Assembly (NCBI RefSeq): GCF_028736115.1
Contig: NZ_CP117877.1
Coordinates: 4,534,187 to 4,598,186 of the forward strand
Direction: 5' to 3'
DNA: 64,000 nucleotides
Origin: Mucilaginibacter sp. KACC 22063
GTDB taxonomy: Bacteria > Bacteroidota > Bacteroidia > Sphingobacteriales > Sphingobacteriaceae
Made by a program: the position numbers and the translations under genes. Below are positions 14,367-64,000 of this stretch, in pieces. The notes under the pieces were generated by a model that was given only the letters and a program-made list of their open reading frames with translations, ran no database searches and was not told the origin of the DNA. Each line of letters starts with the position of its first letter. Position 1 is the first letter of the stretch.

Positions 14367-14825
14367 TTAATTAAACAAGCTAATAAAGAACGCATGTCTG
14401 GAATATCTGCTTCGCTGTATTCCAGGGGTTATCTTTGATCATTGCAGCTACCTGCTAATGATGATCTTAAATTTTATGCAACAAGGTTTAAGAGACGCAT
14501 TTTAACTACCATATCATCAACGGCAATAGCGGCGTTTTCTTGCCATTAAGTGCTGTTAATAATCAAACTTCAGGGGGCGCAATTATACGGACAATCGTAA
14601 ATTGTTGTTATACTGATATTCGTAAAATCTCTGATACATTTTGCTTTAAGCAACGGTAGTTACATCTAAAAATTTTCATTTTTTAACACTGAATTTCAGT
14701 TATTTAACTATTGAGCAAAGGTAAAGCAGGCAACATTTTGGCTCATTTTCAGTTTTTTAAATACAAACAGGCTGCAATAGCCTTACATCTACATTAAATT
14801 TTAAAACTTTAAATAGGAGTAATTT

Positions 14826-15410: not shown

Positions 15411-15427
15411 TTGATATTTCCTTTCAA

Positions 15428-15465
15428 AACAAACAAGCCCCGCAATTGCGGGGCTTGTTTGTTTA
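15428..15465. terminator. bidirectional terminator hairpin between convergent genes
   Basis: caaacaagccccgc-aatt-gcggggcttgtttg. Perfect ~14-bp stem flanked by A/T runs. Confidence 0.6.
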
Positions 15466-16170
15466 TACGGTTTGCGTACCGACGGCAAAATAATTTTCCA
15501 AGTCAGTAAGCGTAGATGAGTCTGTGGCGATATCTTTTATAATCCTGCCCTTCTCCATCAGCAAGATACGGCTGCTTACATCTGTAACGTGGTTTAAATC
15601 GTGGCTGGATACAATAGTTGTTACACCTTTTGCACTCAGTTCTTTCAGTAAGTTCTTTAACCTGATCTGGGTACTCGGGTCAATATTGGCAAATGGCTCG
15701 TCCAGCATTAACAGATCGGGGCTTTGCATCAGGCAGGCTGCAACGCCAACCTTACACTGGTTACCTTTTGACAGGTCGCGGATGTATTTACCCTTTTTCA
15801 GGATCTCGCCGTTGAAAAACTCAGACAAGCCTGCAAGATGTTCGTCAACCTGGGCACGGCTCAGCTTATGTAAACCGCCTATGAAATAAAAATACTCTTC
15901 GGGTGTAAGATAATCGATCAGGAACCCCTCATCCAGATATGCGGCGGTATAGCTTTTCCATTTCTCTTTTCCGGCAACAGGTTCGCCTTGCGACAGTACC
16001 TCTCCCTCGTCAGGGCGGATAAGGTCTAACACCATACGAAACAGGGTAGTTTTACCTGCACCATTATTACCAACAAGGCCAATGCTTTCGCCTTTATTAA
16101 TCAGCAACGAGTCGATGTTAACGACGGTAACACCGGCATATATTTTTTTTAAGTCTTTTACTTCAATCAT
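15463..16170 (-). CDS. ABC transporter ATP-binding protein
   Basis: Walker A GNNGAGKTT, signature LSKGNQCKVGVA, Walker B LLMLDEP, H-loop. Confidence 0.85.
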   Translation of the reverse strand: MIEVKDLKKIYAGVTVVNIDSLLINKGESIGLVGNNGAGKTTLFRMVLDLIRPDEGEVLSQGEPVAGKEKWKSYTAAYLDEGFLIDYLTPEEYFYFIGGLHKLSRAQVDEHLAGLSEFFNGEILKKGKYIRDLSKGNQCKVGVAACLMQSPDLLMLDEPFANIDPSTQIRLKNLLKELSAKGVTTIVSSHDLNHVTDVSSRILLMEKGRIIKDIATDSSTLTDLENYFAVGTQTV

Positions 16171-16171
16171 T

Positions 16172-17659
16172 TTATTTTGCTCTGAAGCCTTCGGCTATGG
16201 TATATCTTCTTTCGTAAAAATCCTTCTCTAACTGTTTGATCCAGAAACTGCGGCTTAACACAAACACTAATCCTATAATGCCAAGTGCAATCAATCCAGC
16301 ATATTTATGTCCTAATGCAGAAAACGGCAGATAGATGACATAAGGGCCAAGCAGCAGCGGCAATGACAACAGCCACTGCGTACCGCCGACGCCTTCCCAG
16401 TTAAATGAGGCACCTTTTGACAGATCAATGCGCCTGTAATTCCGGTTGGCAAAAAACAGCACAATAGTTGTGCTTACACCAATATTCCACAGATACATCA
16501 CAAAATGGTTGAGCAATATATCCCAGCCGTAATAGACGTAAGGTATGGTGAGAATAAACAATACGGTTGATATGGTAGTAAACATCAGGAACTTCGCTTT
16601 AATAAAGTCCTCATATTTTACGTGACTTACCAAGATACCATCAAAGTGGCTGCCCTGCCAGGCAAACATAAACTGGCCATAGTTAATGATGAAAATACCG
16701 GTCATTAATAACGCCGGAATAAGCTGTATACCCGAGTTGTGTTTCAATTGGGGATTGTTGTAAAATATCAAACCATATCCCACAAAAAACAAAGACATCA
16801 CAATGCTGGAACGGGGCCGCTTGTTACGTAAGATCAGCTTTACTTCATTAGCTACCAGGTCGCCCACGCTTCCAAAGTATCCGAGGAACGGAATTTCGGT
16901 ACTGCTTTTATAGGCTGAAGCTTTTTTAGAACCCAGCTCTTCGAGGTAAAGGTTTGATTTCAGATAACTGAACGTAACTATAAACATCACCCCGGCTAAC
17001 AGAACAGGCAGTATGGCCCACACCGGCTGACTGATGACATGACCAAAGAAATAGCCTGACCATGTACGGATAGAAAACAGGTGCCATGAGAAATCGGCAA
17101 GGCCAATTAAGATGAGCACTGCCGCTGCTACCAGGAAAATCCAGCCGTTAAGATTGGATTTACGCTTAATGTAAAGGGCCAGGTAATTATTGAATATGGT
17201 TAACCCGATGATGGCTACTATTACTGCCATTGCAGCGCCCGGGCCATTCTCATGTGCAATAATTTTACAGGTAAAAGGCACAAACAGGATAAGCGGCCAC
17301 AGATTAAATACCGTAAATAAACCCGTTGTAGTTAAGTAACCCACTACCGTATTGCGCTTTACAGGCAGCAACAGATAAGGCTGTACGCGTAAGGTAGGCA
17401 ATTCTTGCAATTGCAAACGTGTCAGCAAATCAAACAAATAGTAGTAAAGAATGATACCGCTGAAAGCCGGAATCATGTCCTGCTCGGGGAAAACCTCACT
17501 AAGTATCTTATCGAGAAAAAAGCCTACCACAAGCACATTGGCCAGAAGATATAAAATAAGCACGGCCATTACCACACGTACGGCAATGCTTTTGCCTGTG
17601 TTTTTCGACCGCCAGAAGGCTTTTAGCTCATGCTGTAAAAAAGTAGAGATCATATTCAA
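16172..17659 (-). CDS. polytopic membrane protein, putative permease partner of the ABC ATPase
   Basis: 495 aa, about 10-12 TM segments. Immediately upstream of and translationally abutting the ABC ATPase. Confidence 0.6.
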   Translation of the reverse strand: MNMISTFLQHELKAFWRSKNTGKSIAVRVVMAVLILYLLANVLVVGFFLDKILSEVFPEQDMIPAFSGIILYYYLFDLLTRLQLQELPTLRVQPYLLLPVKRNTVVGYLTTTGLFTVFNLWPLILFVPFTCKIIAHENGPGAAMAVIVAIIGLTIFNNYLALYIKRKSNLNGWIFLVAAAVLILIGLADFSWHLFSIRTWSGYFFGHVISQPVWAILPVLLAGVMFIVTFSYLKSNLYLEELGSKKASAYKSSTEIPFLGYFGSVGDLVANEVKLILRNKRPRSSIVMSLFFVGYGLIFYNNPQLKHNSGIQLIPALLMTGIFIINYGQFMFAWQGSHFDGILVSHVKYEDFIKAKFLMFTTISTVLFILTIPYVYYGWDILLNHFVMYLWNIGVSTTIVLFFANRNYRRIDLSKGASFNWEGVGGTQWLLSLPLLLGPYVIYLPFSALGHKYAGLIALGIIGLVFVLSRSFWIKQLEKDFYERRYTIAEGFRAK

Positions 17660-48291: not shown

Positions 48292-49254
48292 ATGCCTAAG
48301 CTTAATACAAATACATTTAAAACTCTTGACGATTTACTTACGGCGGTTTATCAAGACTTAATGGAACGACCGAGTTCTATTCCAACTACAAGAAGCAAGA
48401 AAGGGGGAGACACTTGTGAAATTATTGGAGTAAGTTTGACTTTAGCCAACCCTCGTGCCCGCTTAAGTCGCTCTGAAGTTAAAGGCAAAGCATTTAGTCC
48501 TGTAGGCGAACTACTTTGGTATTTGTCTGGAAGTAATACATTAGAATTTATACAACCCTATATTTCGCATTACAAAGATGAGACAGATGATGGCAACACA
48601 ATTTATGGCGCATATGGCCCAAGGCTATTAAACATGCATAATAAATATAACCAGGTCAATAATATCATAAAATTATTAGGGCAAAAGCCCACATCTCGAC
48701 GTGCAGTTATACAACTTTTTGATGCATCAGACTTAGTTGGAACACATAAAGAAATTCCTTGTACTTGCACCTTACAATTTCTTTTGCGAGACAATCAATT
48801 AAATCTACATGTATCGATGCGCTCTAATGATGCATACATGGGCTTACCACATGACGTATTTGCCTTCACAATGTTGCAAGAAATAATGGCAAATATACTC
48901 GGTGTGGATATGGGGGCTTATCACCATTCAGTTGGGAGTCTACACCTTTATGATAATGATAGGAATCTTGTCGAACAATATTTATATGAAGGTTACCAAC
49001 CAACGAAATTTTATATGCCAGCTATGCCGAAAGTTGATCCTCGGCCAGCGATTAAGCAAATAATTAAACTTGAAGAGCTTATCCGAACGGATCAATCCTT
49101 TTGTCTTGATGGCCTTGATCCATATTGGGTTGATATCATAAAAATGGTACATATTCATTTTCTGAGTAAGAAAAAAGATATCACTGGCATCAGAAATGTT
49201 ATGGCTGGCATGAATGACATTTACAAAATGTATATTGAAAAAAAGATTTGTTAA
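48292..49254 (+). CDS. thymidylate-synthase-family enzyme (ThyA fold), predicted deoxycytidylate-type pyrimidine C5 hydroxymethylase/methylase
   Basis: Aligned from memory with E. coli ThyA: ELLWYLSGSNTL vs ELLWFLQGDTNI; TSRRAVIQLFD vs DSRRIIVSAWN; catalytic Cys in IPCTCTLQF vs APCHAFFQF; MRSNDAYMGLPHDVFAF vs QRSCDVFLGLPFNIASY; GSLHLYDN vs GDTHLYSN. The specificity Asn (ThyA N177) is replaced by Asp (PHD), as in dCMP hydroxymethylase. Confidence 0.8.
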   Translation: MPKLNTNTFKTLDDLLTAVYQDLMERPSSIPTTRSKKGGDTCEIIGVSLTLANPRARLSRSEVKGKAFSPVGELLWYLSGSNTLEFIQPYISHYKDETDDGNTIYGAYGPRLLNMHNKYNQVNNIIKLLGQKPTSRRAVIQLFDASDLVGTHKEIPCTCTLQFLLRDNQLNLHVSMRSNDAYMGLPHDVFAFTMLQEIMANILGVDMGAYHHSVGSLHLYDNDRNLVEQYLYEGYQPTKFYMPAMPKVDPRPAIKQIIKLEELIRTDQSFCLDGLDPYWVDIIKMVHIHFLSKKKDITGIRNVMAGMNDIYKMYIEKKIC

Positions 49255-49272
49255 TTCGCGCTTTTAAATATT

Positions 49273-50070
49273 ATGGTCGACGAAATAACAGAATTAGTTG
49301 AACGACTTTCAAATCCAAATCTCGCGGAATTAGATGTAATTACATGGGGAGCTCCTGTGCCTACATTTGGTAACTTAGAAGGCGCTAAAATTGCTACACT
49401 GGGTTTAAATCCAAGTAACAAAGAATTTGTAGACAATTCTGGTAATGAATTAATAGGTAACGCAAGACGCTTTCATACCTTAAGCTCATTAGGATTGGAG
49501 GCTTGGGAAGACGTACAACCTTGTCATCTCAACTCAATTGTTGAGTTATGTAATGAGTATTTTTTAAGAAATCCTTATGATGGTTGGTTTAAACGATTAG
49601 ACTATCTAATATCAGGTACATCTTTATCATATTATTTCCCCTCATCAGGGGCTTGTCATTTGGATTTAATACCTTACGCAACAACCACTAAATGGGGAGA
49701 ATTGACTAATTGGCAAAGAAATACGCTACTGAAAGAATATGGAGACATACTTGGTGAATTATTACGGAAGTCATCCATAAGATTATTAGTTCTTAATGGT
49801 AAAAGTGTCTTGGATAACTTCAATAAAATTTCAGATGTTAATTATGAAATTACATTGATGGAAGATTGGTGTTTACCAAGAAAAGACAGTACAGGAGTTC
49901 CTGGGTTTTCTTATGAAGGCATTTGCAGAAATATTGGAGGTGTATCTTTAGATGAACCTCTTTGTGTACTTGGATTTAATCATAATATTCAAAGTAGCTA
50001 CGGTATAACAACTGCAATTCAAGAATCAATTAGAAAATGGATAGCCACCAAATCGGCCAGCTTTTTATGA
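49273..50070 (+). CDS. hypothetical protein co-operonic with the TS-like enzyme (weak UDG-superfamily-like motif)
   Basis: 265 aa, 19 bp after the TS-like gene. GLNPS resembles uracil-DNA-glycosylase superfamily motif A (GxNPG/GINPG). No P-loop. Assignment is tentative. Confidence 0.5.
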   Translation: MVDEITELVERLSNPNLAELDVITWGAPVPTFGNLEGAKIATLGLNPSNKEFVDNSGNELIGNARRFHTLSSLGLEAWEDVQPCHLNSIVELCNEYFLRNPYDGWFKRLDYLISGTSLSYYFPSSGACHLDLIPYATTTKWGELTNWQRNTLLKEYGDILGELLRKSSIRLLVLNGKSVLDNFNKISDVNYEITLMEDWCLPRKDSTGVPGFSYEGICRNIGGVSLDEPLCVLGFNHNIQSSYGITTAIQESIRKWIATKSASFL

Positions 50071-50993
50071 GACTTTCAAGGGATATAGAGTTAGAAACTT
50101 CGTTAGTAAGTAGTCTTAAAGCTTTTCAAAACACAACCCCCTTATTAGGAATTGCGAATCAGCCAGAGCTTGACTGCTTTGTAAAACAGCTTGTGGATAG
50201 TGTACGTAGGATACAATATGTAACAACTATACGTGATAAAATAAATACACCGAGTTGTGTTAATCCTAACCTTGGCGGATTTAACCCCATTAAAGCGGCT
50301 GCGTTTCATCATGCTAATGGAAATTCGGAAGAAGCTTCTTGGCTTGTATTTTTAGCCACACATTTTGGCAAAAATAAAGCATCGGGATGGCAATTACTAC
50401 AAGATGTCTACGGTACTTTGGGAATGGGCATATTCGATTGGCAACAAGCATGTCAGTCTCCTCGAGGACTCGGAATATGGATTGATAATAATAAGAATCA
50501 GTTAAAAGCAAATGGTGGCAACTTTGGTAACCATCGAAAATATCAAAGCCTTAAAGTAAATAATACCGGCCAAACTATTTCGAGCTATATTGATTGGATT
50601 GGCAAAACCAAATCTCATTTAGTTAAATTTTTACAACTTGAACCAAACCAAGCTAATCCCAAAATACGATTTAGGGCATTTTATAATTCAATGTTACAAG
50701 TATATGGATTTGGAAGAACTGCTGTATTTGACTATTTAACCATGATGGGCAAATTGCAGCTTATTGATGTAGAACCCGACTCTGTATACATGATCGGCGC
50801 CACGGGGCCATTTAAAGGAGGACGGCTCCTTTTTACTGGAAGTTGTAATGCCTCAATTACACGCCGCCAAATGGATCGAATGCTGTCTTCACTTAACCAA
50901 CATTTAGGTATACCATTTGGGATGCAAGTATTAGAGGATGCTTTATGTAATTGGCAGAAATCTCCTAATCAGTATATTTATTTTAGCGGTTAA
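50037..50993 (+). CDS. hypothetical protein, third gene of the TS-like operon
   Basis: 318 aa. Start overlaps the previous gene by 34 nt (translational coupling). No motif I can assign with confidence. Confidence 0.55.
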   Translation: MDSHQIGQLFMRLSRDIELETSLVSSLKAFQNTTPLLGIANQPELDCFVKQLVDSVRRIQYVTTIRDKINTPSCVNPNLGGFNPIKAAAFHHANGNSEEASWLVFLATHFGKNKASGWQLLQDVYGTLGMGIFDWQQACQSPRGLGIWIDNNKNQLKANGGNFGNHRKYQSLKVNNTGQTISSYIDWIGKTKSHLVKFLQLEPNQANPKIRFRAFYNSMLQVYGFGRTAVFDYLTMMGKLQLIDVEPDSVYMIGATGPFKGGRLLFTGSCNASITRRQMDRMLSSLNQHLGIPFGMQVLEDALCNWQKSPNQYIYFSG

Positions 50994-52080
50994 AATCAGG
51001 TATTGCCTCCCAAGTATATTTCCTTTTATAAGAATTGAATCTATTATATTCGATTTTTCCGAAATGCTGCATCTGACCAATCAAAATACCTGCAGAAACA
51101 CCAATTTTTGAGGCAAAACCGATAATAAGCCTTTTATTGCTCACTGGCAATTTCATCATATTTTCGCGATAAATAGAGGGTATTAATTGTTCAGCAGCAA
51201 ATTCATTGGCTTCCTTTTCTTCTTCGCTTGTAAGCCTGTTTCTGCTAATTTCTTCAACAAACACAGAGTTTTGCCCATGCAATAACAAGTGGCCAGCCTC
51301 ATGAAAAAAAGTAAACCAAAAGTGATCATCAGTCAGATAACGAAAGCTGAGCATTAATAAAGCTCTATTTGGACTCAAAAATTTAGTTACACCACTCGCC
51401 TGACAACCATTAGGAGTTCGAACAATCGCAATAGCAACTCCACATTTAGCACAAATCGCCTTTAGCTTAGGCAAGAAAATCTCAGGTTCTTTAATTTTTG
51501 TTAGTGAACGTATTTCTGTTAGTGATGCTGCAAACAGTGCGGCATTCCAGTCTTTACATTCTATCGATTGACTTTGTATTTCTCCCTGTCTAAGCCATGC
51601 CGCGACAGCAGCTGGCTGTTGTTTGAAACTGGAAGATGTCCGAAATGACACTTGCGCCATTTCTGCTTGATATTTATTATGCCACTCATTGATATCAGAG
51701 ACTCCGAAATAAAGTAGCAATGCGTCAACACTTTTAGCTACCTCTTCCTTTATCCACCCGAAGTTTATCATATCACGTATTGGCAAAAGCTTAAGCCATG
51801 ATTGTTCCGCAACCTTTTTCAACCTCACAAGCCCTTCTCTGTATTGAAATTCTCTTCTTAACCAAAAGTCGACAGATGCACCAAGTATTTCTGAGAGCTT
51901 TTGAGACGTTTCCTCTGTAATTACCGCAGTACCATTCAAAAGCTCATTTATAAAACCTATGGAACTATTCATTTGAGCTGCGAAATGATGTACAGATATC
52001 TTCTTTTCTTCCAGTAATTCAACAATTGTGTCTCCTGGTACTGAAATCCAATTAGGTTTAAATGTTTCTGTGGTTAACAT
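50983..52080 (-). CDS. XRE-family HTH fused to ImmA/IrrE (COG2856) zinc metallopeptidase domain; HigA-like antitoxin/regulator
   Basis: N-terminal HTH (ISVHHFAAQMNSSIGFINELLNGTAVITEETSQKLSEILGASVDFW). C-terminal FTFFHEAGHLLLHG (HExxH of ImmA/IrrE). Starts 2 nt after the HigB-like ORF. Confidence 0.8.
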   Translation of the reverse strand: MLTTETFKPNWISVPGDTIVELLEEKKISVHHFAAQMNSSIGFINELLNGTAVITEETSQKLSEILGASVDFWLRREFQYREGLVRLKKVAEQSWLKLLPIRDMINFGWIKEEVAKSVDALLLYFGVSDINEWHNKYQAEMAQVSFRTSSSFKQQPAAVAAWLRQGEIQSQSIECKDWNAALFAASLTEIRSLTKIKEPEIFLPKLKAICAKCGVAIAIVRTPNGCQASGVTKFLSPNRALLMLSFRYLTDDHFWFTFFHEAGHLLLHGQNSVFVEEISRNRLTSEEEKEANEFAAEQLIPSIYRENMMKLPVSNKRLIIGFASKIGVSAGILIGQMQHFGKIEYNRFNSYKRKYTWEAIPDFNR

Positions 52081-52082
52081 AA

Positions 52083-52400
52083 TTATTGGATTTTTACAAT
52101 TTTAATACGATTAACTTTATTCCAATCTAACTGATCTTCCTTATTTAACGGCTGATGTTGATGAACAGAAAGAAAAATAAGAAAATGTGACGGCAATATT
52201 TCAATTTGGTAAGCAGGCCGACCTTCCAAAACTACTTCCTTTGGAGAACCCGTAGGAATATCCATTACACAATTTGCAGCCATAATATCAGCTAATCGTG
52301 TTTTAAGCTTTTTAGCAAAAACACTACCCAGTTGATCCTGAGCAAATTCCTCATTTTCACAAATCATGCGCAATGTTGGATCTGAAAAAGAGATGTGCAA
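52083..52400 (-). CDS. HigB-like (RelE/ParE superfamily, plasmid-maintenance killer-type) toxin
   Basis: 105 aa. Resembles HigB from memory (KKLKTRLADIMAANCVMDI vs HVKKLRMRLDVLDAAECLHDL; PAYQIEILPSHFLIF vs HSIRINDQWRICFVW). Toxin-first order with an HTH partner downstream. Confidence 0.6.
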   Translation of the reverse strand: MHISFSDPTLRMICENEEFAQDQLGSVFAKKLKTRLADIMAANCVMDIPTGSPKEVVLEGRPAYQIEILPSHFLIFLSVHQHQPLNKEDQLDWNKVNRIKIVKIQ

Positions 52401-52595
52401 CGCTTATTATATACTTAAAAGTCAATGATAAAGTTTGGGATCTCTGAATGAAATCATCGACAAAACTATTAAAAAATACTTTATTTAGAATTGATTAAAG
52501 GGTTTAATGTATGAATTGTTGATAAAATTAACAGTTGTTGAAAGTATAAAACGCATGATATATATTAAGCCCGTTAAAAAGCCTATTTTGTATCA

Positions 52596-52976
52596 ATGAT
52601 CATCCCAGTTGCTGCTGCCATAATAATAAAGGACAATAAGATTATGATTGCCAAACGATCACAACATAAGCATTTGGGTGGCTTTTGGGAGTTTCCTGGC
52701 GGTAAAATAGAGGCTAACGAGACTGCTGAAAACTGTTTGTTACGCGAACTAAATGAAGAGCTCAAAATAAAAATAAAAGTAATTAGCTATTTGGCTGAAA
52801 ATACATACGATTATGGCTCAATAAAAATTTTGCTTAAGGCATTTATATGTCATTTTATAAGTGGGCAATTTACACTAATTGACCACGATGAAGTAAGATG
52901 GGTGACTACTAAACAACTGCAAGATTACAATATGGCTCCTGCGGACATTCCATTCCTGAAATTACTTACCAACTAA
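52596..52976 (+). CDS. Nudix hydrolase, MutT/NudG-like (8-oxo-dGTP / (d)CTP pyrophosphohydrolase family)
   Basis: 126 aa. Nudix box GGFWEFPGGKIEANETAENCLLRELNEELKI. Confidence 0.85.
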   Translation: MIIPVAAAIIIKDNKIMIAKRSQHKHLGGFWEFPGGKIEANETAENCLLRELNEELKIKIKVISYLAENTYDYGSIKILLKAFICHFISGQFTLIDHDEVRWVTTKQLQDYNMAPADIPFLKLLTN

Positions 52977-53291: not shown

Positions 53292-55286
53292 TTAGATTAC
53301 TACTAACAACCGTCGTTTTAGCAATTCTACAACTTGTTGTGTAAACAGATTTTTTAATTTATGATTTTCTTGTGCGCCATTTTGCTGAAATAAATCACAA
53401 AATTTTCTGAATCCCTCATTCATATTATTTCTGCCGTCAAACACCATTATAATGTAATAGGCTAGAGAGCTTATCTCAAAATGAATGACTTCATAAACTG
53501 AATGTATCTCAAAAAGAAAATGAGATTTGCCTTTCAAGTTTTTTGATGGCAAATGCAACGGGACATCTATCTGGTTAATATTCCAATTTGACTTGTAAAT
53601 TTTACAATATGGATTTAATCTAAGTATGACATTTTCATCGATACAATCATTCAAAATCTTGTTACCTAAAAAACTTAAATTTCTTCTTTCAACGTAGCGT
53701 TGATATTCAAAAATAAAATTATTATAGTCATTGCAATCACTCAAAAATTGGTGTTTACTCAATTCAAAGTCAAAAACTGCCTTTATAAGTTTATTTTTCA
53801 AATCGTGAGATTTCAGTCTATATAGGTCTTTAATCATTTTCTTGACAAAGAAAGACGGATGCTTATTGACTTGTTCGATTTCAAGGGATCTCAATGCGTA
53901 AATATGATTACCTACATGTTTTATTAAAGCAATAGTTTTTGGAAAGGCTTTTGAAAACATCTTATCTCGGATGTTCGAAAGTTCTAAATTAAATCTTTTA
54001 ACAGGCGAAGGGCTTTCGGGAATTAATATGTCCATCATCTTACTTTCTTTACGAAGTGATATCAAATAAAAATAACCAACACCGGCAAGGCCATTAAATA
54101 AACCTAAATTATTCTCAGGGAGTGCGGTTGGAGCAACTAGTCCTAAGACTCCTATTCTCTTTGCCTGCGATGATGCAGCTATTGCTATATTTTCGATCAA
54201 TTCTTCTTGGTAAGTATTGGGAAACATTTCTACGAATTGACGCAGCAAGTAGGCATTTCCTCCTACAGCATGGCATAAAGTATAATTACTATAATTATTT
54301 TTTATTTTACTTATTGAAGCGATTGTTGCATTTAATGCAATCGTCGCATCTTTAAGATATTTCTTGTCTCTAAAAAACTCATACATCTTCAATCTACACA
54401 TTCCAATTCCTGCTGCACCATGGCACCATGCGATCATCAATCCAGGTTCATTAAGTTTACTCATCTGAGCGCGATAACCGCTTTCACTCAAACTTTCGCT
54501 GTATTCAGAAGTGTCCTCAGAACGAAAATCAGGCCAGTTATCATGTGACTTATCAAATAGTTGATCTTCATACAAGTAGGCTTTGTCGATTAGGTATTTA
54601 ATATCAGGGTTTCCAAAAAACTTATAAAGTTCCGTTAATACCCATAACATGCCGGATACTCCATGTGCAAAACCACATAGACCAGCCATATAAATTTTTG
54701 ATTTCTCCCAATAAATTGATCCATTGGCTGACAGACAATGATTTTCAATTAGATCATTTGTAAAAAATTCAATTTGTTTTACAATTTTGATATCTTCTGT
54801 GATCGAGTATAAATTTAAAAGTGCCAAAATAGCACCGCCCGTTCCAGAAATCACATCTTTATTTTCCATCCAGTGAAACTGATTGTCAGTATCACAGTCC
54901 TTCATTACCCTTCTAGCTTGCGCTAAGAGATAGTTATCACCTGTGATCTTGTAAACCTTAGTAAGTACATAGGATACCCCCCCTCTCCCAGAATAAAAAC
55001 CGTAATTATTTGCTGAGTTATTTTCGCAAAAATGAATTAACCAGTTAGCGGCTTTTAAAATTACGTCTAAAATTTCCTGATGCTTGAAGAATAAATAAGC
55101 CTCAGACAAAAACAATATTATCCCAGCATTACCTGCATAAATACTATCGCCAACAATCTTATCATAACATTTTGTCAACCTATTATAGTTAATTGTCTCC
55201 CAATAATAGCCTTGCTCATCTTTTAACTTACTAGCAATTATTAGGTTTAATATTTCATTAAGCGTGTAATGTGTCTCGGAATCCAT
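53292..55286 (-). CDS. LanC-like lanthipeptide cyclase with ~240-aa C-terminal extension of unknown function
   Basis: LanC motifs SGTGGAI, GFAHGVSG (GxAHGxxG), AWCHGAAGIG (WCxG) and LCHAVGG (CH Zn ligands) in residues ~30-430. Residues ~430-664 unassigned. Confidence 0.8.
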   Translation of the reverse strand: MDSETHYTLNEILNLIIASKLKDEQGYYWETINYNRLTKCYDKIVGDSIYAGNAGIILFLSEAYLFFKHQEILDVILKAANWLIHFCENNSANNYGFYSGRGGVSYVLTKVYKITGDNYLLAQARRVMKDCDTDNQFHWMENKDVISGTGGAILALLNLYSITEDIKIVKQIEFFTNDLIENHCLSANGSIYWEKSKIYMAGLCGFAHGVSGMLWVLTELYKFFGNPDIKYLIDKAYLYEDQLFDKSHDNWPDFRSEDTSEYSESLSESGYRAQMSKLNEPGLMIAWCHGAAGIGMCRLKMYEFFRDKKYLKDATIALNATIASISKIKNNYSNYTLCHAVGGNAYLLRQFVEMFPNTYQEELIENIAIAASSQAKRIGVLGLVAPTALPENNLGLFNGLAGVGYFYLISLRKESKMMDILIPESPSPVKRFNLELSNIRDKMFSKAFPKTIALIKHVGNHIYALRSLEIEQVNKHPSFFVKKMIKDLYRLKSHDLKNKLIKAVFDFELSKHQFLSDCNDYNNFIFEYQRYVERRNLSFLGNKILNDCIDENVILRLNPYCKIYKSNWNINQIDVPLHLPSKNLKGKSHFLFEIHSVYEVIHFEISSLAYYIIMVFDGRNNMNEGFRKFCDLFQQNGAQENHKLKNLFTQQVVELLKRRLLVVI

Positions 55287-55494: not shown

Positions 55495-55785
55495 ATGAAA
55501 AAAAAATTAGACCTAAGTGAACTCAAAGTTCAGTCCTTTATCACATCTCTCGACGAAGCTCAAACAAAATCTGTCAAAGGCATGAGTACAGGTACCGACC
55601 CAACATCTCAAACAAACTATGTGGAATGTTGCAATACCACATTTGATCCGTGGAATACTTCTGCTACGTGTTCGGTTGCATATTGTGCCACGACAGTTCC
55701 AAGAGAATGTGATGCAACAGGAATGTACTACGCAACTTGTGACGGAAGTTGTCCAACTCAAACTCCTGGCTATGGCGATTGCTAA
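55495..55785 (+). CDS. lanthipeptide precursor peptide (LanA-like)
   Basis: 96 aa. Leader MKKKLDLSELKVQSFITSLDEAQTKSVKG carries an LDL box like the class I FNLD motif. The C-terminal ~66-aa core has 8 Cys, 14 Thr and 5 Ser. Sits between the LanC and LanB-C genes. Confidence 0.75.
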   Translation: MKKKLDLSELKVQSFITSLDEAQTKSVKGMSTGTDPTSQTNYVECCNTTFDPWNTSATCSVAYCATTVPRECDATGMYYATCDGSCPTQTPGYGDC

Positions 55786-55850
55786 TTGATAAACGGGTCA
55801 TTCCGACTTTACAGAATGACCCGTTTATCAATCAGCGATTTTAAGCATAA

Positions 55851-56768
55851 TTAAAAACCACCTATCCCTATCAGTAACATATAATAAAGATAGCTTTCAT
55901 CATGATTACTTATTCCCAGCCGGTTGTTTGTCATGTGCAATAAACTTCCAAGTATTCTCCACGTATCTGGCACTTTTGTCTTTTCCAAGCTAGTATCTAT
56001 GATAGAATTAAAGTTTGTTTTGAGTGCGATATAATCATTGTAAAAATTCTTTGCGTGATTATTCCAAGATTTTATGAGCTCATCATCAAACATTCCCGAT
56101 ATGCACTGATCCCAAATTAACTTTAATTTTAATTTTAAAAGTTCTTTATTTGCTTGTATAGCTTCACTAAATTTACTTTTGCATACCTCTACTACAGTGT
56201 CCTTTTGTAATTGTAGATTTTCATTTTTATTTATAATACGCCACGCATGTAAAATCCAAGATTCTATTTGAAAATTCAGAAACTGTCTCAACGATTCTTT
56301 ATCCAAGTTCATATTAACCAGAAAAATCAAATGCATTTCAAAACCACACATCATCTTTTGGTTATAATTATCTAATCTTTCCTTTTTGAATAGAGACAAT
56401 ATTATCTTTGAAGATTCGAAGAAATTTTTTTCGGCCAATCTAATTACTTTGTCTCCACCATATCGCTCTATCTCTGGAACGTATGGAACGGCCTGAACCA
56501 TTTCACCTGGTCTCTCAGTTATACCAAATTCACTTTTTAAAAATTCACTGTATTTGCTTTTTAAAACCTCATTAAAATCGAATTGAGACTTACTGCCAGA
56601 TAAAAACCGCAATCTGACATGTGGTCCCCCCTCAAAATATCGAATGAAAAAAAATTCCCCGTTTGTAGTCAGGTTCAGGTCATTAACTAACGGTTCTACA
56701 AACTTATGTATCAAAAAGTCAAGCGGCTTCAATGTAAAATATATATATACCGATTTCCAGTTTCTCAT
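55851..56768 (-). CDS. lanthipeptide dehydratase C-terminal (glutamate-elimination) domain protein, split LanB
   Basis: 305 aa. FFIRYFEGGPHVRLRF matches the hallmark of the Lant_dehydr_C / thiopeptide-type bacteriocin biosynthesis domain. Stand-alone size is typical of split LanB. Confidence 0.75.
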   Translation of the reverse strand: MRNWKSVYIYFTLKPLDFLIHKFVEPLVNDLNLTTNGEFFFIRYFEGGPHVRLRFLSGSKSQFDFNEVLKSKYSEFLKSEFGITERPGEMVQAVPYVPEIERYGGDKVIRLAEKNFFESSKIILSLFKKERLDNYNQKMMCGFEMHLIFLVNMNLDKESLRQFLNFQIESWILHAWRIINKNENLQLQKDTVVEVCKSKFSEAIQANKELLKLKLKLIWDQCISGMFDDELIKSWNNHAKNFYNDYIALKTNFNSIIDTSLEKTKVPDTWRILGSLLHMTNNRLGISNHDESYLYYMLLIGIGGF

Positions 56769-56903: not shown

Positions 56904-58208
56904 ATGACATATTGCCTTACCATTTTTAAATTAAAAAGCCTGCCGTTAGCGCTAGCTTTAGGATTCATCTCATTTTCTTTGCCAGGAAAACATAGAATAA
57001 TGTCAAATCGCTTTATTTCTTTTGAAGTTTATTCCTTATTAATTCAAGATCAAAGTGGCAGTCCGATACCATTTGCCACATTAACCAACACATCGCAGAA
57101 TTATTCACGTCCATTTGATAATACCGGGAAAATGGAACTGGAATCGAAAGATTTAAAAGCTGATGATAACATTATAATAAGTTGTCTAGGCTATCAGACA
57201 AAAAATCTTAAAGGGCTAGACATTATGTCTGTAAAATCACTTGCTGTAACACTAAAAGATGATATCGTCTCCTTACATGAGGTAAAGATTATACCTAGTA
57301 AATACGACTTAATATTTAAAAACATTCAAGCTCTACCGTTTCCACTCTATTATCAAGCTTACGCAACCGATGGTCGGTATGCTTACACTATTGGCGGGGA
57401 ATCCGGTGCTACAGTATGTACACAAGCACTAAAGTTTGACCCGCATTCTAATACGTGGAGCCTGTTAGCTAACCATTTAAAACCTACAATTCAATCAACT
57501 GCTACTTATTTACCGATTTCAAATAAAATTTATGTTTTTGGAGGAATAACCTCGCTTGTCAATTTTACATATTTTGAAAACGTTGAAACAATTGATGTCA
57601 ACACAGGGAAAGTAGAGATATTAAATGTAAAAAATCCGATGCCATCAGCATATGGTGGATCGGATACTTGGGCTAATAAAATTTATCTATTTGGAGGCTG
57701 CAGTGATATTAACAACTATACATCCAGCAAAGCAACCAACGATTTTTATGAATATGATCCCGTGACCAATGTGTTTACAAGGCTCCCGAACATGCCAGAA
57801 AAATTACAGACAAGTGGTCGAATTATAAATGGCATTTTATATATATTAGGTGGATTTAACCCGCAGAATGCACATATAAGTAGAAATATCTACAGTTACA
57901 ACATTAGAGAAAAATACTGGAAATTATTAGGAAAATTACCAGAAGAAGTTTCAGGAAACGGTCTTTCTGCTATAGGTAATTTGATATTTGTTTCGGGAGG
58001 TTATGAAAAAGAAACATTCTTAGGCTTCCTAAATACGCAAACTGGAGAGTTCACAAAGCTCAAGTCTAACATGACGGGTCGAAGACACTCAGCTTCTGTC
58101 ATTTTATATAATCATTTAATGATAATTGGGGGGAAAGGTGACGGTAATATTACCGGACTAAACAATGTCCAGGTTGCAAACTTGGAAAGTTTGATAACTA
58201 ATCAGTAA
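56904..58208 (+). CDS. Kelch-repeat beta-propeller protein
   Basis: Six repeats with xGG ends (YAYTIGG, KIYVFGG, KIYLFGG, ILYILGG, LIFVSGG, LMIIGG). N-terminal hydrophobic segment. Confidence 0.7.
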   Translation: MTYCLTIFKLKSLPLALALGFISFSLPGKHRIMSNRFISFEVYSLLIQDQSGSPIPFATLTNTSQNYSRPFDNTGKMELESKDLKADDNIIISCLGYQTKNLKGLDIMSVKSLAVTLKDDIVSLHEVKIIPSKYDLIFKNIQALPFPLYYQAYATDGRYAYTIGGESGATVCTQALKFDPHSNTWSLLANHLKPTIQSTATYLPISNKIYVFGGITSLVNFTYFENVETIDVNTGKVEILNVKNPMPSAYGGSDTWANKIYLFGGCSDINNYTSSKATNDFYEYDPVTNVFTRLPNMPEKLQTSGRIINGILYILGGFNPQNAHISRNIYSYNIREKYWKLLGKLPEEVSGNGLSAIGNLIFVSGGYEKETFLGFLNTQTGEFTKLKSNMTGRRHSASVILYNHLMIIGGKGDGNITGLNNVQVANLESLITNQ

Positions 58209-58225: not shown

Positions 58226-59284
58226 GTGAATATCAGAATTACACTTTGCAGTCGTCCAGACGATCAAGAAGTCATAGATTTAAGGAAAAGAATTAAGGAT
58301 ACAAGCGGATACTCCACTTTTAGAAGCGAAGATTCTAAAAGGGAATTTACATACATTACCATTTCAAATATTGAAGAAGTCATAAATGACTCTGCCATTA
58401 AGATTTTAAGTAATCGATTTTATCACTTATTATTGAGACCCAATACTTCGAAAAGTATCCAAACCAATCAGTCGAAAATTTTTAACTGGCTAATTGAAAT
58501 TCCAATTTATGAATCAATTATTGACAAAAGAATCAAACTTACACTTGATATGTTTACGAACTATCATAAGATAAATTTCACAGTTCTTAAATCATCAAGT
58601 AGTAAAATATTATCAATAAGTCTTCTCAATCAAATACCTGAATTTTTAAGTAATTTATACACTTTACTGCTTTCTTTAACCGGCCCAGTAGATGCGCATC
58701 AAGCAAGGCACGAGATCGTATTGCAAGAGATTATTGCAAAAAAATCACGATTTGTACTTGAATTAGGATGTGGAAAAGGCAACTTTATTACACGTTTAAA
58801 TCGTGCATTGCCTGACATTCAAATCTGTGGTATTGAAATAAATCTTGATGATTTTCAACATGCGACAGCATATTTCGAACGACAAATTCATTCAGGACTA
58901 ATTTCTATGGTCAATGATTCGATATGCTGTTTTGAAAAATGGCCGCCGGGAGTTGACTGCATCACTTTAAATGAAGTAATCGAACATCTTACAGAACAAG
59001 AACTAAACCAGACCATCAAGCATATTTTTAACAACGTAAAACCGGAAGTAGTTATTATCACAACTCCCAATAAGAACTATAATAAATATCTCAAGCTTAC
59101 AGAAGAAGGGTTCCGACATCCCGATCATCGTTTTGAGCTCAGTCGCGAAGAATTTTCCAGGTTCGCAGCTAGAGTGATCAATGATCATGAATATGGATTT
59201 GAAATACTTCCTCATTGGTGGATTCGGGATGGTTTGGAATCATTGTCAACTATAGCCATTTTCACAAAATATTCTTGCACTTGA
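58226..59284 (+). CDS. class I SAM-dependent methyltransferase (C-terminal half) with unassigned N-terminal domain
   Basis: Motif I VLELGCGKGNF, acidic residue after beta-2 (GIEIN), motif IV-like DCITLNEVIEHL. Confidence 0.65.
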   Translation: MNIRITLCSRPDDQEVIDLRKRIKDTSGYSTFRSEDSKREFTYITISNIEEVINDSAIKILSNRFYHLLLRPNTSKSIQTNQSKIFNWLIEIPIYESIIDKRIKLTLDMFTNYHKINFTVLKSSSSKILSISLLNQIPEFLSNLYTLLLSLTGPVDAHQARHEIVLQEIIAKKSRFVLELGCGKGNFITRLNRALPDIQICGIEINLDDFQHATAYFERQIHSGLISMVNDSICCFEKWPPGVDCITLNEVIEHLTEQELNQTIKHIFNNVKPEVVIITTPNKNYNKYLKLTEEGFRHPDHRFELSREEFSRFAARVINDHEYGFEILPHWWIRDGLESLSTIAIFTKYSCT

Positions 59285-59307: not shown

Positions 59308-59835
59308 TCACTGAGGGTATAAGGTTTTTAATCTCATACCCACAGAGTCGACTATTTTTTCTAAAACTGAGGTTCTCTTTACAACAACCGACAAATGTAA
59401 TTTTAAGTGTGGATTTTGTCTTAGAAGTCTTTTTATTGAGGAATCGATTTTGAATTTTACAAGCGTTTCGGTTTCGGTTATAGGCGTTACGTTTAACAGC
59501 TTCAAACTTAAGGCAGCATTGCGCTTTAATTTAACATCGTAGGCTTTAATGATGATATCTTTCTCGAGCCTGTCGTCTATCGGTTTCCTTATAGGAATAA
59601 TTATAGATGAATAATAATAGCAATTATTACCTTCAGAACAATTGATTAATGTATTTGATTCAATTGTCTTTATAACCGGATAATCGATTAGAGATAACAA
59701 TAATAGTGTGAAAAATAAGAATAAAGATGATAGAAAAATTCCCCACCGTATCGCCCATGGCGGGCTGGAAAGAATTATATTATCGATTTCAACTGTATGC
59801 TTTTTAGCGTACTTTTTAGAATTTAAGTTTTTCAT
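59308..59835 (-). CDS. short HlyD-like membrane-anchored accessory protein
   Basis: N-terminal TM then IDYPVIKTIESN, like the HlyD N-terminus. Only 175 aa. Overlaps the ABC exporter stop by 4 nt. Confidence 0.45.
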   Translation of the reverse strand: MKNLNSKKYAKKHTVEIDNIILSSPPWAIRWGIFLSSLFLFFTLLLLSLIDYPVIKTIESNTLINCSEGNNCYYYSSIIIPIRKPIDDRLEKDIIIKAYDVKLKRNAALSLKLLNVTPITETETLVKFKIDSSIKRLLRQNPHLKLHLSVVVKRTSVLEKIVDSVGMRLKTLYPQ

Positions 59836-62012
59836 GTACCTAGTTCCAATTGATTTTGCACAAGCGCGTAGTATTGGCCTTTTGAGGCTACTAACTGGGA
59901 ATGCGTACCTTGTTCAACGATACAACCGTTCTCTAAAACAATAATATTATTAGCATTTTTTACTGTACTCAACCGATGAGCTACTATAACTACCGTTTTC
60001 CCGCGAAAAAAATCGTTTAAGTTTTCGATGATAATTTTTTCATTCGTACTGTCAAGCGCATTTGTCGCCTCATCAAAGAAAATGTAAGATGGATTTTTGT
60101 AAATAGCTCTTGCAATTAATATTCTTTGACGCTGTCCCTGACTAAGACCAGTGCCCTCGGCACCTATTTTTGTATCAATTCCAATGGGCAATGAGGATAC
60201 AAAATCTTCTATGTTGGCCATTATCAATGCTCTTTTTATCTTTGCATCATCGGGATCAGGATCTGCTAATGTTATATTTTTCCTGATTGTATCTGAGAAG
60301 ATGAAGCCGTCCTGCATAACAACGCCACATTCCGCTCTCCAAGTTTCAAAAGATATTGATGACAGCGAATGATCTCCAATTTTGATTACTCCAAGATTGA
60401 CTTCATAAAATCTTAGTAGAAGTTTTAATATTGTCGTCTTCCCACTACCGCTCATACCTACGATAGCAGTAACCTTACCCTCTGGAATCGACAGATTCAG
60501 ATTTTTAAATAAAAAATTTTCAGAACTGCCTTGATATCTAAAACTTACATCTTCAAATTTGATGCTCTTTTCGGTAGGCAATTCAGATGAAAGATCTGAC
60601 CCCAGAGATTCTTCATCGTCAAGTTCAAATATCTCGTTGAGTCTTTCTAGACTTATCTTTGCATCTTGGAAAGATTGAGCAAAAGAAATAAACTGCTGAA
60701 TTGGCATATTTAACTGCCCAATTATGTACTGTATTGCAACCATAGTACCCAGCGTAATTTCATTGTTAATTACTGCCTGCGCACTCAAAAATGTAATCAG
60801 CAAACCGGTTGATTCATTAATTAATATGGAACCACCTTGCTGAAATTGATTTAATGACAGAGCTTTTATACTAAACTTAAAAGTTCTTGCCTGCAAAGTT
60901 TCCCACTCCCACCTCTTTTCATTTTCATAATTATTTAACTTAATTTCTTGCATACCGTTTACGATTTGAATCATCGTACTTTGATTAGTAGATGAAATAT
61001 CAAATCTTTGATAATCAATAGTCCTTCTGCGCTTCAAAAAACTAATTATCCATATTGTGTATAGAAAATTTCCTATCATAAATACGATAAAAACTTTAAC
61101 GCTATACATAATAAGGACTACTGTGAATACAATTAAGTTAAATACAGAAAAAATAGTTGTTAATGTTGACCCTGTCAAAAAGCTTTCGATTCTTCTTTGA
61201 TCAGTTGTCCTTTGTAGTATGTCCCCGACCTTTTTCGAGTCAAAGAAATTTATGGGTAACCTCATCAGTTTAATTAGAAAATCTGTCAGTATAGAAATAT
61301 TTATCCGCGTACTTATATGCAGTAATATCCAAGACCTTATAAAATTAATACTAGACCTGCCTATTATTAACGTTGCCTGTGCCAGAATGACGAGATAAAT
61401 AAATGTAAAATTTCCAGTTCCGATACCCACATCAATAATAGATTGGGTTAAAAAGGGAATAATTAATTGTATAAGGCTTCCCACAAGCAGGCCAAGAATT
61501 AGCTGCGAAAAAAGCTTTTTATAAGGCGTAAGATACTTGCTTAGTAAACGCCAGTTGATCTTATCGCTCTCTTCACCGCTATCTGCACAAAATTCTGGTA
61601 AAGGATTAAAAAACAAGGCCAATCCCTTATCTGATGAAAATTTCTTTGACTGCCAAGAAACAAGAAAATCAGATTCTTTCATTTTAACTAAGCCATTTAA
61701 TGGGTCAGCCAAAAAGAAGTTATTTTTTTTTATTTTATATAAAACGATAAAATGATTTCCACGCCAATGCAATATGCAGGGAAGTTTAACCTGATACAAC
61801 CCTTCAAGTGAAATTTGACAACTAAATCCATCGAGTCCTATCTTTTTAGCACCTTTCAAGATATTGTTAAATGAGACGCCCTCAGGTCCTATTTCTGTGA
61901 TTTGCCTCATTGTGTTGAGGCTGTAGCTGCGTCCATAAAATTTTGCAATCATACGCAAGCAGGTTGGGCCGCAGTCTGTCTGGTCGTGCTGCTTATAGAA
62001 TGGGAATTTCAT
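59832..62012 (-). CDS. bacteriocin/lanthipeptide-processing ABC transporter with N-terminal C39 peptidase domain (LanT/SunT-type)
   Basis: C39 catalytic Cys in QHDQTDCGPTCLRMIAKFYG. 6-TM domain. Walker A GMSGSGKTT, signature LSQGQRQRILIARA, Walker B FFDEAT. Confidence 0.9.
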   Translation of the reverse strand: MKFPFYKQHDQTDCGPTCLRMIAKFYGRSYSLNTMRQITEIGPEGVSFNNILKGAKKIGLDGFSCQISLEGLYQVKLPCILHWRGNHFIVLYKIKKNNFFLADPLNGLVKMKESDFLVSWQSKKFSSDKGLALFFNPLPEFCADSGEESDKINWRLLSKYLTPYKKLFSQLILGLLVGSLIQLIIPFLTQSIIDVGIGTGNFTFIYLVILAQATLIIGRSSINFIRSWILLHISTRINISILTDFLIKLMRLPINFFDSKKVGDILQRTTDQRRIESFLTGSTLTTIFSVFNLIVFTVVLIMYSVKVFIVFMIGNFLYTIWIISFLKRRRTIDYQRFDISSTNQSTMIQIVNGMQEIKLNNYENEKRWEWETLQARTFKFSIKALSLNQFQQGGSILINESTGLLITFLSAQAVINNEITLGTMVAIQYIIGQLNMPIQQFISFAQSFQDAKISLERLNEIFELDDEESLGSDLSSELPTEKSIKFEDVSFRYQGSSENFLFKNLNLSIPEGKVTAIVGMSGSGKTTILKLLLRFYEVNLGVIKIGDHSLSSISFETWRAECGVVMQDGFIFSDTIRKNITLADPDPDDAKIKRALIMANIEDFVSSLPIGIDTKIGAEGTGLSQGQRQRILIARAIYKNPSYIFFDEATNALDSTNEKIIIENLNDFFRGKTVVIVAHRLSTVKNANNIIVLENGCIVEQGTHSQLVASKGQYYALVQNQLELGT

Positions 62013-62096: not shown

Positions 62097-64000
62097 TTGA
62101 AATTATTTAATCATGTACTTACCAGAACTTGTGGTCTTTCATTTGAAACGGCATGTCAGAGTTCGGAACTATTACTGGCCGCAGCCATAAAGTATATCAA
62201 TATTAAAGATGAGCTCACAAAAATTAAAATAATTCTTCTTGAAGAATTACACGACCACAACCAAGCACTTACAAACCATGGCTTACAACAGAAAATTCAA
62301 AACATAAGAAGAAAGATTTTTCAGGATAAGGACTTAAATGAAAGTGACAAGAATTTAATATTGGAAGCTTCTCCTCAAATAGCTTTTACTTATAAGAGAT
62401 TTCAGTCCATTTTTTTAACTCTGGAAGATGAAAATCAAAAAGGCCAATACATCTTTTCCAAAACAATTCTACATGAACGACAATCGCTGCGTATACAAGT
62501 TCAAAATGATACTTTTAAAAATGCTGTAGCGCAGTCAAGTCACCTATTATTAAGTCAAATCGAGAAGATAGGCAAACAACAATCTATAACAATTGATAAG
62601 AAATATTCACAAGCAGAAAAAAGCTTAATTAAATATTTATCTAGAGCAAGTACAAAAACATCACCATTCAGCACCTTCACCAATCTTACAATTTCGAAGT
62701 TAGTACAGAGTGATGATGCAAATCCTTATGTCAAAGTTGAAAAAAAACCAATAAAAATAATAAAATATACAAAAGTTAACAATTTACTTCAGTTAATTTT
62801 CATTGAGGTCTTGCTTACTTATGAGGAAGTTTTTATCGACTTAAATTTAAAGTTGAATTCTACTTTTCGAAAAGACAGTAAGGGGTACAGTTTTTTGGTA
62901 AACTTAAAGAATATTGATCATTTCCAGACTGTTGACTCAAACGCATTATGTGAACTGATAATTTCCCTTTTGATTTATGGTAACTTGAAATTTATTGATA
63001 TAATTAACAAAATTACAGAAGAATTTGATATTGAGAAGAACTATCTGATTGACTTTTTAAAGAACTGCATAAAAATTGGACTATTGGAAATTGATTTAGG
63101 ATACTCTCCCCTAGACGCACAATGGCTGGTTAGCATGTTAAATGTCATAAACAAGGTCAACTCATCCAAATTAGATAAGTTTGGTGAAATCCTCAAAAAA
63201 CTAGCATATGAACAATCAAGATATCATCTAGTCTCACTATCCCAAAAAATCATTATTCAAAGTGAATGCTATCAGCAAATAGAAAATTTCTTAACCAATG
63301 ATTATGCACAACCATTAACCGTTGATACCGAATATTATTTAAAATTTTTCCAAAATGCCATCAAAAAAGAAAGCTTGTTTTTTGAAGATGTTAAATCCAA
63401 CATTGAAATAGAAATAGGCGGCGCTGGAATTGAGGAGGATTTTCAATTATTACTAAAAGCGATACGTAAATTAAGCTTCTTAGATGGCAGGAGGCACGAC
63501 AAAATCAAAACATTCAACTTTTATAAAAATTTCTACCCTCATAAGACAACGGTTCCTCTTATCGAGTATTATCAGGATTATTATAAATTTTTGAAAAGGA
63601 CTTCGAAATCTCAAGCAACACCCGAGGAAGATCAAAATAAGGATTTAAAAGATGCTTATCAAAACCATTTATTAAAATATGACAGATGGAAAGATAAACT
63701 AATATCCTTATTAGATTTAGATTATTTCAACGACGATAAAAATGAAATTAGAATCACTTCAGAAATTTTAGATGCTTGTAATAATGAAGTCGAATTTTAT
63801 CCTGAAAATGTAGGAAACAAGTCTTACGCTGGTTTTTTTCAAATGACACTAGCGCCTAAAAACGAGAAGTACATCTGCGAAAAATTGATAGTCAACTCAT
63901 TCTATTCTGGATATGGCAAAATGTTCTCACGTTTTCTACATATGTTTGATGATGAAGTTACAACTGAGATTAAAAAACAAAATGATAATTTAAGACCGGT
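62097..64000 (+). CDS. lanthipeptide dehydratase N-terminal (glutamylation) domain protein, split LanB, 3' partial; start codon uncertain
   Basis: Frame open from 62040 to the window end. Hallmark KYLSRASTKTSPFSTFTNL (LanB RxTPFG motif) and later VNSFYSGYGKMFSRFL. No in-frame ATG in the first ~230 codons. Candidate TTG start at 62097. An ATG at 62113 is in the +1 frame. Confidence 0.7.
   Translation, partial: MKLFNHVLTRTCGLSFETACQSSELLLAAAIKYINIKDELTKIKIILLEELHDHNQALTNHGLQQKIQNIRRKIFQDKDLNESDKNLILEASPQIAFTYKRFQSIFLTLEDENQKGQYIFSKTILHERQSLRIQVQNDTFKNAVAQSSHLLLSQIEKIGKQQSITIDKKYSQAEKSLIKYLSRASTKTSPFSTFTNLTISKLVQSDDANPYVKVEKKPIKIIKYTKVNNLLQLIFIEVLLTYEEVFIDLNLKLNSTFRKDSKGYSFLVNLKNIDHFQTVDSNALCELIISLLIYGNLKFIDIINKITEEFDIEKNYLIDFLKNCIKIGLLEIDLGYSPLDAQWLVSMLNVINKVNSSKLDKFGEILKKLAYEQSRYHLVSLSQKIIIQSECYQQIENFLTNDYAQPLTVDTEYYLKFFQNAIKKESLFFEDVKSNIEIEIGGAGIEEDFQLLLKAIRKLSFLDGRRHDKIKTFNFYKNFYPHKTTVPLIEYYQDYYKFLKRTSKSQATPEEDQNKDLKDAYQNHLLKYDRWKDKLISLLDLDYFNDDKNEIRITSEILDACNNEVEFYPENVGNKSYAGFFQMTLAPKNEKYICEKLIVNSFYSGYGKMFSRFLHMFDDEVTTEIKKQNDNLRP

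Follow-up and report, generated by a model that had tools for sequence, protein, structure and literature searches.

The stretch analyzed here, called the window, comprises 64,000 nucleotides of the Mucilaginibacter sp. KACC 22063 chromosome (Bacteroidota; contig NZ_CP117877.1, positions 4,534,187 to 4,598,186). Toward its end lies a 96-codon open reading frame (ORF), termed LanA, that very probably encodes a class I lanthipeptide precursor of the pinensin family. LanA sits between a gene for a LanC-type cyclase and a gene for the elimination domain of LanB. The LanC gene, the split LanB and a C39 ATP-binding cassette (ABC) transporter all lie within 7 kb and make up the gene set of pinensin, and the same set is also found in related loci. 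Its members are arranged as follows, with positions counted from the first letter of the window.

53292-55286, minus strand: LanC-type cyclase, 664 amino acids (aa), upstream of LanA and divergent from it (PF05147, E 8.9e-61).
55495-55785, plus strand: precursor gene LanA, an ORF with an ATG start, 96 aa plus stop.
55495-55584, plus strand: LanA leader, residues 1-30, as delimited by family alignments.
55585-55782, plus strand: predicted LanA core, residues 31-96, as delimited by the same alignments.
55851-56768, minus strand: stand-alone LanB elimination domain (PinB2-like), 305 aa, downstream of LanA and convergent with it (PF14028, E 1.2e-39; TIGR03891, 95 bits).
59832-62012, minus strand: peptidase-containing ABC exporter (PCAT; PinT-like), 726 aa, C39 domain intact (PF03412, PF00664, PF00005).
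62097-64000, plus strand: LanB glutamylation gene (PinB1-like), TTG start, first 634 codons inside the window (PF04738, E 8.4e-10).

The translation of the precursor ORF is exactly that given in the original prediction. An identical entry exists in NCBI and UniRef under the name "pinensin family lanthipeptide" (Mucilaginibacter sp. KACC 22063), and the assignment of LanA to this family had already been made by the NCBI annotation pipeline. Residues 3-29 match positions 1-27 of the 28 in the NCBIfam profile NF038180 (leader_pinensin) with 40.5 bits (E 1.9e-10; curated cutoff 24 bits), and a purpose-built hidden Markov model (HMM) of the leader recognizes the LanA leader with an E value of 6.7e-17. 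Because of these two matches, the ORF is not a chance one. No Pfam model matched LanA, its core has no detectable likeness to any characterized peptide, and the leader HMM found no second precursor gene within the 64-kb window. Furthermore, the Pfam and NCBIfam matches of the neighboring genes bear out the earlier view that this is a class I lanthipeptide precursor encoded beside LanB and LanC genes and a C39 transporter. LanA is an uncharacterized member of an already-named family, and the biosynthetic logic is as known throughout.

A word-indexed protein search with LanA alone returned only the identical NCBI protein. An exhaustive HMMER search yielded eight weak relatives, all of which carry an MKKxLxLxxLKVxSFVTxLxxxxxxxVKGG leader followed by a Cys/Thr-rich core. 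A profile of 18 precursors gave 535 family members, and the best 125 of these, with leaders cut off by HMM, provide the statistics used below. We also fetched 80 genomic loci by way of LanC homologs, and 81 related loci were compared in all. Of the 80 loci seeded with LanC, at least 9 have leader-bearing, Cys/Thr-rich small ORFs next to the LanC homolog (leader HMM, E < 1e-2). Conserved-leader precursors are therefore present beside LanB and LanC genes elsewhere, and their absence, which the original prediction had named as grounds for giving it up, is not what we observe.

The best 12 loci were annotated, and all of them encode an N-terminal LanB protein (LanB-N) of 896-1083 aa and, as a protein of its own, the elimination part (279-353 aa); among the loci examined, only L012 has the elimination protein in two copies. 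A PCAT-type transporter is present in 7 of the 12, in five cases with 47-54% identity to that of the window and in the other two, L016 and L021, in a form lacking C39. The cluster closest to ours is L081, which has the same divergent arrangement of LanC and precursor genes, a 914-aa LanB-N, a 308-aa elimination protein, and the LanC most similar to the window LanC (31% identity). Its precursor, P0151, aligns to LanA over 99% of its length with 33% identity. This peptide and three others from a Chitinophagales metagenome-assembled genome (MAG) locus, L001 (P0140, P0138, and P0133), share with LanA a DxTSQT motif near the N-terminus of the core and a TPGxYxC motif at its C-terminus, and their cores of 71-77 aa, with 10 Cys and 16-19 Ser/Thr, are similar to that of LanA. 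In contrast to LanA, their leaders end in Gly-Ala, and L001 carries three precursor copies where the window carries one. As a separate observation, L012, a Weeksellaceae MAG locus, carries a tandem array of about 20 precursor genes of the pinensin family at positions 11916-17522. Their Cys-rich cores are diverse, and the array adjoins a single LanC, a single LanB-N, and a pair of proteins with the elimination domain. Distant leaders in L016, L018, L021, and L030 (Longimicrobium and Gemmatimonadales MAGs) end in Gly-His or similar pairs rather than GG. The transporters of L016 and L021 align to the window PCAT only from its residue ~155 and thus lack a C39 domain, which suggests that a different leader protease might operate in this branch.

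The 30-residue LanA leader reads MKKKLDLSELKVQSFITSLDEAQTKSVKGM. It retains S14, F15, and T17, which are invariant in the aligned family leaders, and position V12 is nearly invariant. An "LDL box" resembling the class I LanB recognition site had been noted in this leader. The L5-D6-L7 tripeptide is indeed present, but it occupies the L-x-L-[D/S] position of the family within a Bacteroidota leader of the LxLxxLKVxSFVT type, and it is not an FNLD box. The L-x-L-[D/S] element is related to the FxLD box of class I leaders, of which LxLD variants have been noted (PMC12710340).

The C-terminal end of the leader is more unusual. As had been stated, it has no obvious double-glycine site: GG, GA, and GS are all absent, so this leader end does not belong to the double-glycine (GG/GA) type. 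The cleavage site had consequently been described as open, either after VKG or at an internal GS or GT. The alignment to homologous precursors that had been proposed as a check has now been carried out, and it leaves the boundary less open than claimed, with G29-M30 in the place of the family GG and the cut after Met30 instead of at those sites. Among the 125 members, the terminal pair is GG in 104 and GA in 9, GM occurs only in LanA, and the other pairs are mostly register artifacts of an NGG subgroup. C39 peptidases read hydrophobic leader positions (-4, -7, and -12) together with GG, GA, or GS at -2/-1 (PMC6363468, PMC10885120). With a cut after Met30, G29 falls at -2, V27 at -4, L19 at -12, and I16 at -15, all in keeping with the substrates of ComA, LahT, and LctT, which are PCAT/AMS transporters. 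LanA departs from these substrates in having Met at -1 and Thr, which is not hydrophobic, at -7. A cut after G29 was rejected because it would place Ser and Gln at the hydrophobic positions. For these reasons, we predict that cleavage occurs between Met30 and Ser31 and that the core is a 66-aa peptide beginning with Ser. The sole real anomaly is thus the Met at P1, which either is tolerated by the transporter or impairs processing. Alignment alone revealed no interpretable substitution peculiar to the C39 domain of the window transporter that could fit a Met at this position.

The core had been described as 66 residues with eight Cys and 19 Ser/Thr. These counts are right, but the string quoted for it, M30-C96, has 67 residues; counted from S31, the core has 66 with identical numbers of Cys and Ser/Thr. 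The Cys residues are at positions 45, 46, 59, 64, 72, 82, 86, and 96, the last being the final residue. The hydroxyl residues comprise 5 Ser and 14 Thr, and the net charge is -6. Because a Ser or Thr precedes every Cys by 3-9 residues, as befits a class I core, eight N-to-C (methyl)lanthionine rings are possible, and the earlier suggestion of up to eight rings is therefore sterically sound. With 19 Ser/Thr for only 8 Cys, at least 11 of the former must lie outside rings, either unmodified or as dehydro residues.

The peptide had also been called unusually large and highly cross-linked, and this holds only in comparison with characterized lanthipeptides. Within the best 125 of the 535 family members, LanA appears high in the range yet is no outlier. 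The median core length is 49 residues with a maximum of 77, and 15 of the 125 have at least 66. The median number of Cys is 6 and the maximum 15, with 34 of the 125 members having at least 8. For Ser plus Thr the median is 8, and the maximum of 19 equals the LanA value (at least 19 in 4/125). Net charge has a median of -2 and extends from -12 to +3, and 22 of the 125 have -6 or lower.

The LanC protein has its best NCBIfam match in the cyclase part of LanM. Its cyclase domain spans residues ~45-413 and contains the H...WCHG...CHG zinc site that is also found in nisin cyclase, with H208, C288-H289, and C338-H339 invariant in a 35-sequence alignment. We take these zinc-site and acid-base residues to fill the roles of His212, Cys284, Cys330, and His331 of NisC. 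Thus, the residues expected of a stand-alone class I LanC are in place. Beyond the cyclase domain is a C-terminal extension of 247 aa (residues 418-664; 53295-54035) that is conserved across more than 100 homologs of 620-700 aa and that has no match in Pfam and no sequence match in the PDB. We identified this domain by fold comparison alone. An AlphaFold model made with 21 sequences (pLDDT 79.7, pTM 0.74) consists of a helical bundle followed by a beta-sheet and three helices. Its top structural match is TglI, followed by the RRE-bearing proteins MccB, MibB, MadB, TbiB1, NisB, TfuB1, PbtF, and PqqD, and an independent Foldseek comparison also places TglHI, PqqD, TbiB1, and MibB on top. From these fold matches we infer that LanC proteins of ~660 aa carry their own fused RRE-like leader-recognition element. 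No mention of an RRE-LanC fusion was found in those parts of the literature reached by our far from exhaustive search, which included the supplement text of a 2025 RRE survey.

The two domains that define a class I LanB, PF04738 and PF14028, are encoded by two separate proteins in the window. Three motifs of the elimination protein, FFIRY..RLRF, PExERYGG, and LLHMTxNRL, recur in the elimination domain of MibB, and orthologs of this protein in related loci are of similar size (279-353 aa). Residues 1-634 of the glutamylation protein are collinear with residues 2-645 of the 914-aa LanB-N of L081 (E 2e-61). As with nisin (NisA, NisB, NisC, NisT, and NisP), the precursor is predicted to undergo tRNA-Glu-dependent dehydration by LanB and then cyclization by LanC. 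The window system differs from that of nisin in its two-protein LanB, in its LxL[S/D]xLKVxSFVT leader in place of FNLD, in the extra ~250-aa RRE-like domain of its LanC, in a core about twice the nisin-type length, and in the predicted removal of the leader by a C39-ABC transporter rather than by a subtilisin.

In the transporter itself, the Gln, the Cys of DCGP, the His, and the Asp of the C39 domain are all conserved in the alignment, as in ComA, LahT, and LctT. Between this gene and the elimination gene lie three others.

56904-58208, plus strand: Kelch-repeat protein, 434 aa, whose N-terminal segment is hydrophobic and which has a CarboxypepD_reg-like domain (Pfam/NCBIfam matches).
58226-59284, plus strand: Hen1-like S-adenosylmethionine (SAM) methyltransferase, 352 aa (Pfam/NCBIfam matches).
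59308-59835, minus strand: membrane-anchored protein, 175 aa, whose start overlaps the PCAT stop and which has a transmembrane segment at residues ~27-58.

The 175-aa protein occupies the slot in which related clusters encode a HlyD-type adaptor of 427-445 aa, and it resembles only the N-terminal transmembrane segment of that adaptor, with weak matches in L027, L008, L009, L002, L081, and L001. No remnant of the rest of the adaptor was found within the window. The L081 and L001 clusters, in contrast, have a full adaptor of 433-437 aa and neither a Kelch nor a methyltransferase gene. Indeed, homologs of the latter two proteins were found in none of the 81 related loci. The C-terminal half of the methyltransferase resembles the bacterial Hen1 RNA 2'-O-methyltransferase domain (TIGR04074, E 7.7e-37, below the cutoff). 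It is doubtful that the pair belongs to the pathway, and the two genes may represent unrelated cargo or strain-specific tailoring.

Clusters of this general type are known among the class I loci of Bacteroidetes, for which split PinB1/B2, PinC, PinT, LanCs resembling LanM, and leaders of the GG type paired with C39 transporters have been described (PMC7268733, PMC10112250). What the window has in common with the pin (pinensin A/B) genes of Chitinophaga pinensis (MIBiG BGC0001392; PinA, PinB1/PinB2, PinC, and PinT) is the NF038180 leader family, a LanB divided over two proteins, a LanC akin to the cyclase domains of LanM, and a transporter of the C39-ABC type (PMC7268733, PMC10112250). The window differs in having Gly-Met for the GG-type site, another gene order, and the Kelch/methyltransferase pair. 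The products would also differ, since pinensin A has 22 aa and two methyllanthionine (MeLan) rings (PMC10125368, PMC10112250) in place of the 66 aa, eight Cys, and net charge of -6 of the LanA core.

With these parts, a pathway can be proposed. The leader would dock LanA on the enzymes, probably by way of RRE-type domains, one of which is apparently fused to the C-terminus of LanC. The split LanB, made up of the glutamylation protein encoded from 62097 and the 305-aa elimination protein, would dehydrate Ser and Thr residues of the core, and the zinc-dependent LanC would add Cys thiols to the resulting dehydro residues to form up to eight (methyl)lanthionine rings. The C39-ABC exporter would then cut at the family double-glycine position, which here is G29-M30, and export the product. 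The new N-terminal Ser31, if dehydrated, would hydrolyze to a pyruvyl group like the N-terminal one of pinensin (PMC10125368).

Taken in full, this reading specifies a 66-residue product with all eight Cys in thioether rings, release by the C39 domain at Gly-Met, and a cyclase that reads the leader through a fused TglI/DUF2063-like RRE domain. We offer it tentatively and consider the complete combination somewhat unlikely. Several points also weigh against the main reading, that of a working pinensin-family pathway. The Met at -1 is outside the canonical set of GG, GA, and GS and unique among the 125 members, and position -7 is not hydrophobic. With only a 175-aa protein in place of the adaptor, doubt falls on export or on whether the cluster is intact. 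The window ends inside the LanB glutamylation gene, so the integrity of that gene is visible for 634 codons only. Finally, the peptide is known here from genes alone, and even for pinensin the link from PinB1/B2/C to the product is unconfirmed by experiment (PMC9680876).

A stronger contender, although one that we hold to be just short of probable, is that LanA is a genuine precursor whose product is only partly cross-linked, with some Cys as disulfides or free thiols and many Ser/Thr unmodified or left as dehydro residues. If so, "eight rings" would be too strong a claim. Pinensin, the sole characterized member of the family, has just two MeLan rings and its N-terminal pyruvyl group (PMC10125368), and the excess of Ser/Thr over Cys in the LanA core already keeps at least 11 of them out of rings. 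Moreover, C45 and C46 are adjacent, and the S85-C86 and T81-C82 pairs are too close for mutual pairing. However, all eight Cys have well-spaced upstream Ser/Thr, and the active-site motifs of LanC are intact.

It is also possible, but unlikely, that this strain carries a partly decayed, recently rearranged, or otherwise unproductive cluster that releases no mature peptide. The change from GG to GM, unique in the family sample, could then be read together with the replacement of the adaptor by a truncated protein without a remnant elsewhere in the window, and with the insertion of Kelch and methyltransferase genes that are absent from all related loci. The gene order is likewise scrambled relative to L002, L003, L009, and L081, and the cluster lies in a low-GC island beside defense-like, mobile-looking genes. 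Nevertheless, every visible ORF is intact and full length with its catalytic motifs kept, and the LanA ORF is uninterrupted and retains the invariant leader residues S14, F15, and T17. Furthermore, converting GGN to ATG takes at least two base changes, and the Gly-Met pair is therefore no simple recent lesion.

Very improbable is the idea that the stand-alone Lant_dehydr_C protein does something other than, or beyond, glutamate elimination, acting as a [4+2] cyclase like those of thiopeptides or in some other tailoring step, and that the product contains a pyridine or is otherwise not a lanthipeptide: this idea draws on the TIGR03891 match ("thiopeptide-type bacteriocin biosynthesis"), on a weak N-terminal match to the TbtD/PbtD pyridine synthase (E 4.9e-5, with 22.7 bits where the cutoff is 325), and on the fact that this possibility has been raised for extra elimination-like proteins (PMC7268733), but the pairing of a stand-alone elimination protein with a LanB-N of 896-1083 aa in the loci examined fits a plain split dehydratase, the elimination motifs are those of MibB, and an apparently functional LanC is present. 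A thiopeptide or pyritide was rejected because a scan of the ORFs surrounding the cluster turned up neither azoline-forming YcaO/dehydrogenase genes nor a [4+2] pyridine synthase.

The immediate surroundings of the lanthipeptide genes include one further element.

55780-55837, no strand assigned: near-perfect 23-bp hairpin without a T-run, directly 3' of the LanA stop, between the convergent LanA and elimination genes.

As RNA, this hairpin folds with -33.5 kcal/mol (z -9.2), and none of 200 shuffled sequences was as stable. It is probably a transcript-end or stabilizing structure. A scan for consensus terminators called neither this hairpin nor anything else, and a scan for sigma-70 promoters gave matches at chance level only, with a consensus that does not cover Bacteroidota promoters.

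The GC content is 0.30-0.38 from about 44 kb to the end of the window, compared with 0.39-0.46 over the first 44 kb. The low-GC region, which contains the lanthipeptide cluster, was probably acquired horizontally. No tRNA genes were found at its boundary. The genes from 44 to 53 kb have a mobile or defense-related appearance, and several small ORFs at 45-48 kb have no known family. At 48292-50993 (plus strand) are three co-directional genes, which encode a thymidylate-synthase-like protein, a 265-aa protein of no recognized kind, and a match to aGPT-Pplase3 (E 1e-90) and amino acid:DNA transferase (ADDT). Such a set goes with hypermodification of DNA thymidine, mostly in phages; here it resides on a bacterial chromosome. 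Directly adjoining the biosynthetic cluster is a defense-island-like stretch (50983-52976) with a helix-turn-helix and M78 (ImmA/IrrE-type) protein like PD-Lambda-2_B (E 2.3e-24), followed by a 105-aa protein, likewise unassigned, and with a NUDIX protein that matches the candidate defense family PDC-S07 (E 3.9e-50).

Among the class I lanthipeptides of Bacteroidota, native isolation has succeeded for pinensin alone, and a few more have been produced heterologously (PMC7268733, PMC9680876). These bacteria nonetheless encode a large, almost unexplored set of such peptides. LanA belongs to a long-core, Cys-rich, anionic subgroup that has no characterized member, and therefore a single solved structure would open the whole subfamily. 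Two questions raised by this cluster are of more general interest, namely whether a C39 transporter can cut after Gly-Met and whether the RRE-like domain fused to LanCs of ~660 aa is what they use to bind the leader. If the proposed pathway is true in full, a 66-residue product with eight thioethers would exceed every characterized class I lanthipeptide in both size and cross-linking.
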